Origin: an archaeon | GTDB lineage: Archaea; Nanobdellota; Nanobdellia; Woesearchaeales; GW2011-AR9 | DNA: 64,000 bases | NCBI GenBank assembly: GCA_023265925.1 | Contig: JAHFSD010000002.1 | Span: 2,569-66,568 of the forward strand | Reading direction: 5' to 3' | In this document: positions 768 to 40,294 of the stretch, in pieces | How the letters are laid out: each line of letters begins with the position of its first letter | How positions within the stretch are numbered: position 1 is the first letter of the stretch | Translations under genes and position numbers: made by a program | The notes under the pieces: model-generated | What the model was told of the DNA's origin: nothing | Database searches by the model: none | What the model saw: the letters and a program-made list of their open reading frames with translations, nothing else

Positions 768-2846
768 ATGAACAAGAAAATTTTCCTGGCTGATCTGACT
801 CATACTGGTAGGGGGATACATGCCTCAACGTTCCCTTTAGGGTTGTCCTATGTGGCCAGTTATGCTAAGAAAGAACTGGGAGATCAGTACGATATTAAAG
901 TTTTCAAATTTCCAGATCATTTGGTTAAAGCAATCATTGATGAATCTCCTGATTTTCTCTGTTTTACTAATTATTGCTGGAATTTGGAATTGAGTTATAA
1001 AATGAGTTCACTGGCCAAGCAGAGAAACCCCAACTTGATTGTCGTTTCCGGGGGACCTAATTTTCCAGTGTTACCTTTAGAAAGACTCCAATTCATGAAA
1101 CAGCGGTCGGGAATCGATTTCTATATCCAGAATGAAGGCGAAATTGGCTTTGTGGAGCTGGTCAGAAAGCTGGGGGAATATAATTTTGATATAGTTGCTT
1201 TAAAACGCAAACGGGAACCAATCATTAATAGCATCTATTTATGTGGTGAAGAACTGGTGGAGGGGCCATTTCAAAGAATCCTTGATCTGAACCTTATCCC
1301 TTCTCCGTATTTAAGCGGAATCATGGACCCTTTTTTTGATATGCCTTTGACACCAATGATTGAAACGACCAGGGGATGCCCATTTACCTGTGCTTTTTGC
1401 GCTGATGGAATAATCTTTAAAAGCAGAGTGATCAGATTTAATCGTGAACGAGCGCTGGACGAGTTGAACTATATTGTAGCGAGAGTGAGAAATATGGATG
1501 AATTGATTATCACTGACCTTAATTTTGGCATGTACAAGGAGGATGTACCCATTGCAGAATATATTGCTGAGATTAAAAGAACGCATAACTGGCCGATTGT
1601 CATCGGTGCATCAACCGGTAAAAATAATAAAGAGCAGGTACTCAAAGTGATCACTATTTTAGGTGGTTCATTAGTGACCGGAGCAGCTATCCAGTCCGCT
1701 GATCCGGAAGTGCTGAAAAACATCAAACGGAACAATATTTCACTCGAAGTTTACCGTGGATTCCTCGAGTTCAGTAACTCTTTCACTAAAGATGCGGTGG
1801 CTTTCACGGAAATTATTCTGGCCTTGCCCGGGGATACCAAAGAGAAACATTTTTATTCCCTGCGCTACGGTATCGACAATGGGGCAAAAATAGTGCGGAT
1901 GTATCAGGCAATGTTATTGTCGGGAACGGAGATGGCTTCCGAGGGCATGCGCCGTGAATTCCAGTACCTGACTAAATTCCGGGTCATTCCTGGGGGAGTG
2001 GGGATTTACCAGTTTGGAGACCAGTGGTACCCCATCGCGGAAGTCGAAGAGATTATTGTCGGCAGCAAAGACCTGCCTTTTGAGGATTATGTATCCTGCC
2101 GGGTGATGAATCTCATTATTGAAACTTATTTCAACAATGCTTTGTTCAGTGAAGTTTTCTCGGCACTTAAAACTCTCCAGGTTTCTGCGTTTGATTGTTT
2201 ACTGTATATCTTTGAGCACCCCGAGTTGTACACACCAACGATGAAGAAAATCTTTAATCGCTTTATCGATGCTACCAGCAAAGACTTGTATAATTCGTAC
2301 GAGGAGGCGATGGCGCATCTCTCCCGGCCGGAAGTGATTGAAAAATATGTCTCGGGAGAACTGGGAATTAATGAATTGCTGGTTCACCGGGCGGAACTGT
2401 ATCAGGAACTGGAAGAAATCTCCACGGTACTGCTGCAGGCGGTGACTGGGTTATTGCAACAACGGGGCTTCTGGAATGACCGAGCTCAATCTTATTTTGA
2501 TCAACTGATTCAATTCATCCTCTGCCGAAAAAAGGCAATTTATCAATACGAGCAGGTCAGCGAGCAGAAATTTAATTATGACTTTAAAGCTCTCGAAGAA
2601 CTGAACTTTGAAATTGATCCCCGCCATCAGGAACTAAGCCCCTGGCCGTTTCGCTTTAAATTTTTCCATGATGAGGGCCAAAAAAGCCATATTCAAAATG
2701 CTCTTCGCCTTTACATTAACACTCCCAGTGGCATTGGGCGATTGCTGCAACGGAGTAACCTTAAAAAGATGTACCGTAATTTTGACTATTGTGCCATAAT
2801 TCAGGAAGCGCCTAAAATGTTACAATCATTAGCTCTGGAAATATAG
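768..2846 (+). CDS. B12-binding (class B) radical SAM enzyme, probable methyltransferase, with a long C-terminal extension
   Basis: N-terminal cobalamin-binding-like region (KKIFLADLTHTG...) followed by a CxxxCxxC radical SAM motif (TTRGCPFTCAFCADG). Start moved to ATG 768, which has GGAGG 11 nt upstream; the track start 669 would overlap the upstream ORF. Confidence 0.8.
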   Translation: MNKKIFLADLTHTGRGIHASTFPLGLSYVASYAKKELGDQYDIKVFKFPDHLVKAIIDESPDFLCFTNYCWNLELSYKMSSLAKQRNPNLIVVSGGPNFPVLPLERLQFMKQRSGIDFYIQNEGEIGFVELVRKLGEYNFDIVALKRKREPIINSIYLCGEELVEGPFQRILDLNLIPSPYLSGIMDPFFDMPLTPMIETTRGCPFTCAFCADGIIFKSRVIRFNRERALDELNYIVARVRNMDELIITDLNFGMYKEDVPIAEYIAEIKRTHNWPIVIGASTGKNNKEQVLKVITILGGSLVTGAAIQSADPEVLKNIKRNNISLEVYRGFLEFSNSFTKDAVAFTEIILALPGDTKEKHFYSLRYGIDNGAKIVRMYQAMLLSGTEMASEGMRREFQYLTKFRVIPGGVGIYQFGDQWYPIAEVEEIIVGSKDLPFEDYVSCRVMNLIIETYFNNALFSEVFSALKTLQVSAFDCLLYIFEHPELYTPTMKKIFNRFIDATSKDLYNSYEEAMAHLSRPEVIEKYVSGELGINELLVHRAELYQELEEISTVLLQAVTGLLQQRGFWNDRAQSYFDQLIQFILCRKKAIYQYEQVSEQKFNYDFKALEELNFEIDPRHQELSPWPFRFKFFHDEGQKSHIQNALRLYINTPSGIGRLLQRSNLKKMYRNFDYCAIIQEAPKMLQSLALEI

Positions 2847-2940
2847 AGAACTGTGCAACTTTGATTACATTTGTGCGCAGTTTTAATCTGGTAAACAGCG
2901 TGTCGAAGTGTGCTATAAGCTACGTAGTTTACCATAACGT
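2847..2940 (+). repeat. structured repeat element, copy 1 (two imperfect hairpins); candidate small RNA or MITE-like repeat
   Basis: Stem 2847-2856/2875-2884 (agaactgtgc / gcgcagtttt; two G-U wobbles) and stem 2890-2901/2922-2933. The element reappears at 45332-45520. Confidence 0.5.
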
Positions 2941-40100: not shown

Positions 40101-40294
40101 GATTGCTTCGCGTGCTTCTTTTCTTCATGGTGATGATGTATTTCCGGCTGATGCTGGGTATGCTGGGCCTTTGCCGGCTCTCCAGTTGATTCTTTCTTCC
40201 ACCATCCTTTCAGTTTTGCTCCTAGTTTGGAGAAATCAATTACAACGTCATCATCCTTTTTGGGTTCTTTTTTAGTTTCTTCTGTCACCCGCAA
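37160..40294 (-). CDS. aglB: archaeal oligosaccharyltransferase AglB (STT3 family) fused to a C-terminal parvulin (PpiC-type) peptidyl-prolyl isomerase domain
   Basis: Multi-TM N-terminal domain, WWDFG (WWDYG-type) motif. C-terminus [33 protein letters not shown]...[10 protein letters not shown] is a classic parvulin signature. His-rich cytoplasmic N-terminus. Confidence 0.8.
   Translation of the reverse strand: [1044 protein letters not shown]

Follow-up and report, generated by a model that had tools for sequence, protein, structure and literature searches.

The nearest characterised system to the locus described here is the agl/leg cluster of the haloarchaeon Halorubrum sp. PV6, which holds a canonical LegB/LegC/LegH/LegG/LegI/LegF set and in which a nonulosonic acid (NulO) is the terminal sugar of the N-linked oligosaccharide (2018, PMC6137143). 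We analysed a 64,000-nucleotide stretch (the window) of the 67.6-kb metagenome-assembled contig JAHFSD010000002.1, GenBank assembly GCA_023265925.1, from an uncultured archaeon of the Woesearchaeales. The subject is a gene island at positions 768-40294, which carries the oligosaccharyltransferase gene aglB, a set of glycosyltransferases (GTs) and a NulO branch with a NeuB-type synthase and a NeuA-type CMP-sugar synthetase. A first-pass annotation of the same DNA had proposed an N-glycosylation island with aglB and such a branch, and profile matches bore this out.

The island resembles the PV6 cluster in joining N-glycosylation genes with a NeuB-type synthase, a CMP-synthetase, a DegT aminotransferase and a short-chain dehydrogenase/reductase (SDR), and a formyltransferase is predicted in both. 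Unlike PV6, it lacks LegG/NeuC, an LbH acetyltransferase and a recognisable 4,6-dehydratase, and its matches fall under equivalog cutoffs. It adds a TIM-barrel partner of NeuB, an aminoacyl-carrier system, a kinase::transketolase cassette and B12-binding radical S-adenosylmethionine (SAM) enzymes, and it belongs to a DPANN archaeon instead of a haloarchaeon. The bacterial legionaminic (Leg) and pseudaminic (Pse) acid systems of Campylobacter jejuni and Tannerella forsythia (BFO_1060/Tanf_01245 locus, PMC5378307) likewise combine NeuB/NeuA with DegT and SDR enzymes, and a 575-aa GT of the island is distantly related to the BFO_1060 family of the Tannerella locus. In contrast to these systems, the island has no PseB, PseG or LegG, and its TIM barrel has no counterpart there.

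We consider it likely, on the evidence of gene content and synteny, that this is an agl N-glycosylation island of mosaic build, with portable sugar cassettes set around a lineage-conserved aglB/GT core, and not one pathway. Because six or seven GTs are encoded, several different sugars are expected. Comparison was made with 22 related loci (labelled L003, L004 and so on), which are metagenomic and partly truncated. The closest long relative is a single Logan contig (L006 and L023), with 61% identity in AglB. It is collinear with the window and reads aglB, GT2, DUF2304, GT4c, flippase, GT4b, methyltransferase, GT1, dTMP-kinase-like gene, GT4a, ferredoxin 2, radical SAM #2, ferredoxin-DUF4346, polysialyltransferase-like (polyST-like) GT, NeuA, an aminoglycoside-phosphotransferase-fold (APH-fold) kinase, NeuB, TIM barrel, formyltransferase, DegT3, CBS-SDR, SDR2, SDR1 and split transketolase; the flippase sits inside the core. 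Identity to the window is 85% for radical SAM #2, 75% for ferredoxin-DUF4346 and SDR1, 60-67% for NeuA, DegT3, CBS-SDR and the polyST-like GT, 48% for NeuB and 37% for the TIM barrel. Most of the seemingly idiosyncratic content of the island is, on this comparison, lineage-conserved, and the TIM-NeuB pair has been swapped for a different allele between the window and the Logan contig.

Two further loci (L007 and L008) keep the arrangement aglB...GT2-DUF2304-GT4, and the right border, where ATP-citrate lyase stands next to aglB, is common to L008. The GC fraction is 0.35-0.45 over the NulO and acyl genes at 19.8-30.3 kb, versus 0.44-0.49 in the core. A repeat search of the window found no direct repeats flanking the cassettes as marks of insertion.

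The kinase::transketolase cassette provides the main reason for setting aside a single-sugar reading, because it recurs in other loci with no NeuB in the flanks fetched (at most 10 kb on each side). The fusion of the kinase to the N-terminal domain of transketolase recurs as a family of dozens of clusters (40-86% identity), and in every context read it follows a Pfam-less protein of ~220 aa and precedes the gene for the pyrimidine-binding and C-terminal transketolase domains. This trio of HAD-like phosphatase, kinase fusion and transketolase C-terminal part is conserved at 40-80% identity in L003, L004, L005 and L008, and in the closer relatives L004, L005 and L008 it is divergently paired with SDR1 and SDR2. 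The HAD-like gene and the kinase fusion, listed as window-specific in the L006/L023 comparison, are found again in these four loci. The neighbours of the cassette are GmhA/HldE heptose genes in L003 and a JGI locus, and deoxyhexose C-methyltransferases and a 2,3-dehydratase in L004 and L008. No NeuB was found in the flanks of the L003, JGI, L004 and L008 cassettes, fetched to at most 10 kb on each side. We infer from these neighbourhoods that the cassette, which in the window includes the two GalE-like SDRs and the DegT1/DegT2 paralogues, is a separate module for a second unusual sugar. Its HAD-like protein has the DxDxT HAD motif and gave only a faint HAD match in a PDB search. The kinase half of the fusion matched no APH model in NCBIfam. 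The DegT1/DegT2 tandem is window-specific among the loci read.

Directly upstream of neuB lies the gene for a TIM barrel of a rare family with an endonuclease IV/MJ1311-like metal site; we know of no characterised member. The window protein scores 26.9 bits with Pfam AP_endonuc_2, versus a gathering score of 31.1. A HMMER search of 1.84 billion cluster representatives gave 56 representatives at E<=1e-3. The proteins are ~330 aa long, and alignments show invariant K8, E26, H53, H101, E136, D174, H177 and H247. The family profile matches MJ1311 (E=1.4e-5) and endonuclease IV (8e-5), and the invariant H53, H101, E136 and D174-x-x-H177 align with the metal-ligand motifs of these structures; a PDB search with the single TIM sequence gave no match. 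Metal-ligand motifs of the endonuclease IV/MJ1311/xylose-isomerase-like barrels (AP_endonuc_2), namely H..P, HPG-like, EN and DxxH, recur in the family, whose Pfam matches to AP_endonuc_2 are weak. Unlike these barrels, it is tied in the genome to NeuB and not to DNA repair or ketose metabolism.

A 29-sequence alignment of the family was too diverse for search patterns, and a 7-sequence alignment was used instead. The metagenome loci fetched by a pattern drawn from the TIM family alone, together with loci found via NeuB or AglB, comprised 12 distinct TIM loci. In 11 of the 12 the TIM gene is fused or adjacent to neuB: two are TIM::NeuB fusions (L014 9953-12136 and L016 10001-12151), and in nine the genes lie directly side by side (L009, L010, L011, L015, L018, L021, L022, L023 and the window). 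In L012, ~3.5 kb separate the TIM gene from a neuB homologue. TIM::NeuB::SAF fusions also occur among the representatives (P0369 and P0374). Fusion and adjacency together show that the TIM barrel is associated with NeuB, and the barrel probably supplies the step before NeuB. Another representative, P0371 (562 aa), is a TIM member fused to a PIG-L-type de-N-acetylase, not to NeuB, a hint that N-acetylated sugars are substrates of the family. Searched with NeuB alone, species genomes gave one match (36% identity, in a Berkiella metagenome-assembled genome, MAG), and a first metagenome scan found no locus.

The NulO cassette comprises CBS-SDR, DegT3, the TIM barrel, NeuB, NeuA and the polyST-like GT. 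The first-pass annotation had set this island apart from known clusters, and that view held: no protein reaches a curated leg, pse or neu equivalog threshold. In NCBIfam, no SDR, DegT, GNAT, NeuB or NeuA protein reaches a Pse, Leg or Neu equivalog cutoff. NeuB scores 289 with TIGR03569 (the NeuB/LegI model; cutoff 399.65) and 253 with the PseI model (cutoff 340). Of the pseudaminic set, PseB scores 31-45 versus 407.75, PseC 212-262 versus 423.5 and PseH 39.9 versus 93.1; PseI and PseF are also under their cutoffs, and no PseG-like ORF occurs in the window. With the LegB model the highest value, for SDR1, is 142.8 bits versus a cutoff of 475. No ORF in the scanned window passes for NeuC/LegG (Epimerase_2), and L014 has neither such an ORF nor a PseG-like one. 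A LegB-type dehydratase role for CBS-SDR was considered and dropped, as neither motif nor scores support it. We also considered DegT3, CBS-SDR and GT4a as a stand-alone aminosugar cassette; the divergent pairing of DegT3 and CBS-SDR with TIM-NeuB in L014, L016 and L023 argues for a place in the NulO branch instead.

With respect to amine tailoring, the three DegT proteins of the island score 349-384 bits with the family profile, and orthologues of DegT3 carry fused tailoring domains elsewhere, a hexapeptide acetyltransferase in L004 (16-1683) and a SAM methyltransferase in L014 (7765-9681). These variants can be read as a compact record of one amino group decorated differently between strains. 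DegT3 of the window has no fused tailoring domain, and this fits a handover of amine tailoring to the neighbouring acyl cassette.

For transfer of the NulO, the 575-aa GT-B protein is the best candidate judged by its family matches. It is distant kin of Tannerella BFO_1060 and of TIGR04396, both NulO-locus proteins, and its relatives in L018 and L022 match the Capsule_synth family (CMP-Kdo-transferase type). A role for this protein as LegG was rejected, since it passes the polysialyltransferase cutoff and fails that of Epimerase_2. PDB sequence searches gave no match for this GT or for kinase 2.

The most conserved block of the island is radical SAM #2 with two ferredoxins. Both radical SAM proteins pass Pfam cutoffs for the B12-binding and the radical SAM domains, and their CxxxCxxC motifs read CPFTCAFC (residue 237) and CTDTCSFC (residue 275). 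Radical SAM #2 is generic in its matches, with BchE, HpnJ, PhpK and AprD4 models all at 86-115 bits. B12-radical SAM genes recur in glycan loci L007, L012, L014 and L023, and radical SAM #1 with its ferredoxin is window-specific among the loci read. Elsewhere, DUF4346 forms the C-terminal part of MtrA-like and dihydropteroate-synthase-like proteins, and the ferredoxin-DUF4346 protein may supply electrons or methyl groups to the B12 enzyme. The N-terminal extension of radical SAM #2 contains a 15-nt tandem repeat of ~5-6 copies (15458-15547), encoding G-[ND]-S-L-x pentapeptides. The extension is not present in the L023 homologue (520 aa), and the true start may lie further downstream. Radical SAM enzymes go unmentioned in a 2024 review of archaeal N-glycosylation. 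We found no connection of nonulosonic acids with radical SAM enzymes in the literature searched.

NulOs are usually diversified through the N-acyl groups on their amines, and the segment at 24258-30253 encodes an N-acylation cassette. The adenylation domain, carrier and 4'-phosphopantetheinyl transferase (PPTase) are all present, as expected of nonribosomal-peptide-synthetase-type (NRPS-type) adenylation with a carrier. The FD-motif Asp, which binds the alpha-amino group, is kept in the adenylation domain (Asp235, in HFDLSTFD). A Stachelhaus code read by eye fits no known code and was not relied on. Because the gene for an AAC(3)-fold acyltransferase adjoins the adenylation domain and carrier, the arrangement suggests that this enzyme acts in aminoacyl transfer. 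Most simply read, the cassette would make an aminoacyl-S-carrier that serves as donor when an amino sugar is N-acylated. Among the loci read, PPTase, adenylation domain, 5-formyltetrahydrofolate (5-FTHF) cyclo-ligase, GNAT, carrier, AAC(3)-fold enzyme and HAD phosphatase are window-specific; a formyltransferase also adjoins TIM-NeuB-NeuA in L011 and L023.

The cassette recalls D-alanylation (DltA/DltC) in having a stand-alone adenylation domain, a small carrier and a PPTase. The DltA subfamily model gives 336 bits versus a cutoff of 476, and DltA structures in the PDB match at ~1e-60 to 1e-69; adenylation domains of NRPSs in the PDB are also similar. Unlike D-alanylation, the island has no DltB or DltD, the putative transferase is of AAC(3) fold or GNAT type, and the acceptor is presumably a sugar amine and not teichoic acid.

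Two sequence features lie at the end of this cassette. A 24-nt inverted repeat (25051-25074 and 25104-25127; 92% complementary, 29-nt loop) reaches from the 3' end of the AAC(3)-fold gene into the gap that separates it from the HAD gene, and may be a terminator or regulatory hairpin. The HAD_2 gene is split where a T8 run meets an A6 run (24734-24765); deletion of one T restores a HAD protein of 237-240 aa with a full-length match. The split is identical in the ENA and Logan assemblies; it may reflect a sequencing error in the homopolymer, decay to a pseudogene, or a switch that works by phase variation.

In the conserved core, AglB matches Pfam STT3 at 145.7 bits and carries WWDFG(H) at residue 609. 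STT3 is also the annotation of its more than 100 relatives at 41-80% identity, of which the closest named ones (53-65% identity) are proteins of Candidatus Woesearchaeota/Nanoarchaeota MAGs. The host is a Woesearchaeota-type DPANN archaeon, because the AglB relatives are of this group and the genes at 50-63 kb form an archaeal ribosomal-protein operon. That operon (L3, L4, L2, S3, S4e, L32e, S5 and others; 50000-63000) lies on the plus strand and has a strong A-over-T skew of 0.16-0.25. The clustered GTs are GT2, four of GT4/GT1 type and the polyST-like GT, and their synteny is held in L006, L007 and L008. The dTMP-kinase-like gene of the core adjoins the polyST-like GT in other loci. The last ~100 residues of AglB (37160-37460) form a parvulin (PPIC) domain. 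Most of 120 AglB relatives listed from Woesearchaeota/Nanoarchaeota have this fusion; ~40 relatives of ~935 aa are without it. We found no link between AglB and a prolyl isomerase in this sense in the literature searched. Through its parvulin domain, AglB may link glycosylation with folding of the secreted proteins.

To establish the gene content, all ORFs of at least 90 aa at 1-45 kb were translated and scanned against Pfam and NCBIfam, and small ORFs in the gaps were added with a script and from the gene calls publicly available for this contig (Table 1). Nearly all family calls of the first-pass annotation for 768-40294 were verified by profile search. NeuB, the CMP-sugar synthetase, three DegT proteins, two B12-radical SAM enzymes, two APH-fold kinases, the AAC(3)-fold protein, the formyltransferase, the AMP-binding enzyme with its carrier, the SAM methyltransferase, the split transketolase and AglB are all present, and with them the unusual capacity for N-formyl and N-aminoacyl tailoring. 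Its claim of four SDR epimerase/dehydratases did not survive: three extended SDRs lie in the range, and the fourth is of classical type, at 42191-42901 outside the island. It had also described a single, largely minus-strand transcription unit ending in aglB, which fails in direction and in number of units. The minus strand carries 27 of the 37 island genes, but in four blocks interrupted by four plus-strand ones, at least eight alternating blocks in all. A tightly packed minus-strand run of ~16 kb extends over 24258-40294, and aglB is its 5', that is first, gene. Genes missing from the earlier list are three ferredoxins, the TIM barrel, two HAD phosphatases, GNAT, PPTase, 5-FTHF cyclo-ligase, six or seven GTs, DUF2304 and the dTMP-kinase-like protein, as well as the parvulin domain fused to AglB. 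Scans of the window for tRNAs and Rfam families gave zero matches.

Table 1. Genes of the island, in order of position in the window
Feature	Position	Strand	Basis or remark
B12-binding radical SAM #1	669..2846	+	likely start 768; KedN5-type C-methyltransferase 134 bits vs 700 cutoff
4Fe-4S ferredoxin, 83 aa, after radical SAM #1	2962..3213	+	cysteine pattern
Transketolase pyrimidine-binding and C-terminal domains (second half of split transketolase)	3210..4163	-	profile
APH-fold kinase (kinase 1) fused to transketolase N-terminal (thiamine diphosphate, ThDP) domain	4160..6061	-	633-aa gene call; ORF extends to 6163
HAD-like phosphatase, DFDNT motif	6039..6755	-	no Pfam match; conserved partner of the kinase::transketolase fusion
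DegT aminotransferase 1	6794..7909	-	tandem paralogue, 50% identity to DegT 2
DegT aminotransferase 2	7934..9043	-	profile
Extended SDR 1, GalE/TviC-like	9150..10226	+	profile and motif (SASNSCYG)
Extended SDR 2, GalE-like	10219..11238	+	profile and motif (ASSSSVYG)
GT-B protein, 575 aa, polyST-like, candidate CMP-NulO transferase	11247..12974	-	Pfam polysialyltransferase 32.2 vs cutoff 23.3
Ferredoxin fused to DUF4346	13218..13802	+	75% identity in L023, beside radical SAM #2
B12-binding radical SAM #2	13827..15620	-	most conserved island gene, 85% identity in L023
Ferredoxin, 83 aa, upstream of radical SAM #2	15657..15908	-	Fer4_15/13
GT4 glycosyltransferase a	16031..17107	-	profile
CBS-pair domain fused to extended SDR (CBS-SDR)	17196..18581	-	profile and motif (ASSCSVYG)
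DegT aminotransferase 3	18583..19725	-	top match DesI-like (C4 aminotransferase type), 302 bits, under cutoff
NeuB-associated TIM barrel, rare endonuclease IV/MJ1311-like metal-site family	19966..20964	+	ORF opens at 19843; directly upstream of NeuB
NeuB-family nonulosonic acid synthase with SAF domain	21043..22062	+	Pfam NeuB 230 bits, passes
75-aa ORF, unknown function, between NeuB and NeuA	22112..22339	+	small-ORF recovery
CMP-nonulosonic acid synthetase, NeuA (CTP_transf_3; PseF-like)	22488..23249	+	CTP_transf_3 94 bits, passes; PseF 167.6 vs 205.7
APH-fold kinase 2	23293..24303	+	no close characterised relative; homoserine-kinase model only, 39.7 bits
HAD_2 phosphatase, frameshifted	24258..24981	-	79-aa and 158-aa ORFs, +1 frameshift in T8 run
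AAC(3)-fold (Antibiotic_NAT) acyltransferase	25092..25994	-	110 bits
PP-binding carrier protein, 78 aa	25987..26223	-	profile
GNAT acetyltransferase	26216..26731	-	weak PseH-like match, 40 bits
5-FTHF cyclo-ligase	26821..27351	-	profile
Formyltransferase, ArnA/Fmt type, N and C domains	27348..28277	-	Asn-His-Asp signature region
Stand-alone NRPS-type amino-acid adenylation domain, DltA-like	28249..29886	-	TIGR01733 382.3 vs cutoff 317.4
PPTase, ACPS-type	29861..30253	-	profile
474-aa protein: unknown N-terminal domain and dTMP-kinase-like P-loop	30395..31819	-	conserved core
GT1/GT4-type glycosyltransferase	31823..32902	-	profile
SAM-dependent methyltransferase	32871..33626	-	profile
GT4 glycosyltransferase b	33623..34858	-	profile
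GT4 glycosyltransferase c	34892..36070	-	profile
DUF2304 small membrane protein, GT2 partner	36067..36414	-	profile and synteny
GT2, polyprenyl/dolichyl-phosphate sugar synthase type	36414..37163	-	PpgS 122 bits, AglJ 104 bits, both under equivalog cutoffs
AglB oligosaccharyltransferase (STT3) with C-terminal parvulin peptidyl-prolyl isomerase	37160..40294	-	first gene of minus run

The gene content suggests how the glycan would be assembled. The products of the core genes would build an oligosaccharide of about 5-7 sugars on a lipid carrier and O-methylate it, and AglB would then move it onto Asn. In the NulO branch, an SDR and an aminotransferase would produce an amino-hexose. The TIM barrel would stand in for NeuC/LegG/PseG by releasing the sugar from its nucleotide or phosphate, or by metal-assisted 2-epimerisation, and NeuB would condense the resulting hexose with phosphoenolpyruvate (PEP); NeuA would form the CMP-sugar and the polyST-like GT would attach the NulO to the glycan. 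In the acyl cassette, the adenylation domain would load an alpha-amino acid onto the PPTase-primed carrier, and the AAC(3)-fold enzyme or GNAT would pass the aminoacyl group, or acetyl, to a sugar amine. The formyltransferase would N-formylate the sugar or the aminoacyl amine, with the 5-FTHF cyclo-ligase recycling the folate donor. The radical SAM enzymes would perform radical chemistry on a glycan sugar, most likely C-methylation. The transketolase cassette would act on sugar phosphates by phosphorylation, C2 ketol transfer, amination by the two inserted DegT enzymes, and dephosphorylation. More tentatively, and with somewhat less than an even chance in our estimate, the TIM barrel may be an unrecognised NulO enzyme that non-homologously replaces NeuC/LegG/PseG, its NulO being further altered by the highly conserved radical SAM/ferredoxin trio and, in this genome, by N-aminoacyl and N-formyl groups to give an undescribed terminal sugar of the N-glycan.

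The first-pass annotation had all tailoring enzymes converge on one NulO, a single hyper-modified terminal sugar made along a gentamicin/fortimicin-like route. This we now regard as improbable. The tailoring genes do all lie within 40 kb of neuB and neuA, B12-radical SAM genes recur in the NeuB/TIM loci L012, L014 and L023, and both a formyltransferase and the DegT3/CBS-SDR pair keep company with TIM-NeuB in the loci named above. However, the kinase::transketolase/HAD/two-SDR cassette recurs beside heptose and deoxyhexose genes with no NeuB in its fetched flanks, and the six or seven GTs imply distinct sugars. The parallel with aminoglycosides stands at the superfamily level only. Aminoglycoside pathways use the B12-radical SAM methylases GenK/GenD1 and the kinase GenP alongside pyridoxal phosphate (PLP) enzymes, with AAC(3) as resistance enzymes, and gentamicin, fortimicin and kanamycin pathways share with the island class B radical SAM, the APH and Antibiotic_NAT folds and DegT. 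At the specific level the AAC(3)-fold, APH and radical SAM matches are far under aminoglycoside cutoffs: the AAC(3)-fold protein scores 74.5 bits with AAC(3)-IV versus 420 and 60.4 with AAC_3 versus 270. No island ORF contains a cyclitol former (2-deoxy-scyllo-inosose synthase; DHQ-synthase-like and inositol-phosphate-synthase domains). The APH fold also spans sugar, choline and homoserine kinases, and, unlike in aminoglycoside pathways, one kinase of the island is fused to transketolase and the context is AglB with GTs.

A NulO made by a sugar-phosphate route, as in animals and Bacteroides, is unlikely but deserves more weight. A kinase would here yield a hexosamine-6-phosphate, which the TIM barrel would 2-epimerise; NeuB would make a NulO-9-phosphate, HAD_2 would dephosphorylate it and NeuA activate it, the product being a 9-hydroxy sugar of Neu/Kdn type and not a 9-deoxy one of Leg/Pse type. 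A kinase gene adjoins neuA in the window, lies between neuB and neuA in L023, and an APH gene is found in the L016 cassette. The HAD_2 phosphatase, of the NANP fold class, is convergent to the cassette, no SDR has a 4,6-dehydratase motif, and NeuB scores better on the NeuB/LegI than on the PseI model. Xylose-isomerase-like TIM barrels (PF01261) include metal-dependent sugar-phosphate epimerases. Yet the kinases of different loci are not detectably orthologous, and L010, L011 and L014 have none; the HAD gene is frameshifted and window-specific; and the conserved DegT3 and CBS-SDR beside TIM-NeuB argue for an extra, Leg/Pse-like amino group. Least probable of all, in our view, is that the left half (~0.7-19.7 kb) stands outside N-glycosylation and serves to make some other glycoconjugate, or else a diffusible metabolite, aminoglycoside-like or a C7/C8 sugar. 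Its separate alternating-strand blocks, the independence of the transketolase cassette from aglB in L003 and the JGI locus, and the lack of a GT inside that cassette would agree with this. Against it, L008 has the cassette directly after aglB-GT2-DUF2304-GT4, the NulO and agl genes of L023 adjoin it without a break, the left half itself encodes a GT4 and the polyST-like GT, and no cyclitol synthase, exporter or resistance gene was found.

The mosaic reading of the island, which we prefer to these alternatives, has several observations to contend with. The three extended SDRs carry the GalE-type S-x-x-x-Y-G motif without the acid/base pair (T-D/E-E) of 4,6-dehydratases, a distinction established from RmlB and GalE, so that they do not account for the keto-sugar needed by the aminotransferases. 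Taken with the lack of Epimerase_2 and PseG, these motifs mean that the classical Leg/Pse route is not evidently encoded. The 575-aa GT has an Epimerase_2 match of 23.2 bits versus a cutoff of 30.6, and could be a hydrolysing epimerase instead of a transferase. The terminal gene of the acyl cassette, for the HAD phosphatase, has a frameshift, the acceptor sugar of each tailoring enzyme is assigned from its neighbourhood only, and the comparison loci are metagenomic and in part incomplete. Furthermore, no sugar-1-phosphate nucleotidyltransferase was found in the window, and no flippase (AglR/Wzx type; Polysacc_synt/MatE) among the ORFs at 1-45 kb or ten ORFs at 45-63 kb; the flippase gene may lie elsewhere in the genome.

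Beyond the right border, the genes for the alpha and beta parts of ATP-citrate lyase (40366-44143) flank the classical SDR in this DPANN genome. They are followed by a protein with two MopE-type metal-binding motifs (44289-45227) and a partial ORF of a CcrM-like DNA methyltransferase (45926-46783).

With their small genomes, DPANN archaea live in attachment to host cells, a contact in which their surface glycans are likely to be central. Nothing on DPANN N-glycans or NulOs was found in the searchable literature, and a structurally undescribed glycan is plausible here. That ~40 kb of the 64-kb window is given to cofactor-hungry sugar chemistry (B12, ThDP, PLP, folate and phosphopantetheine) suggests that the chemistry of the surface is under strong selection. 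The kinase::transketolase/HAD cassette and the radical SAM/ferredoxin trio are recurrent, uncharacterised glycan-building modules, and solving them would add sugar types. The coupling of TIM and NeuB is the most specific and testable novelty: it provides a candidate for the missing step before NeuB in the many NeuB clusters that have no NeuC, LegG or PseG.

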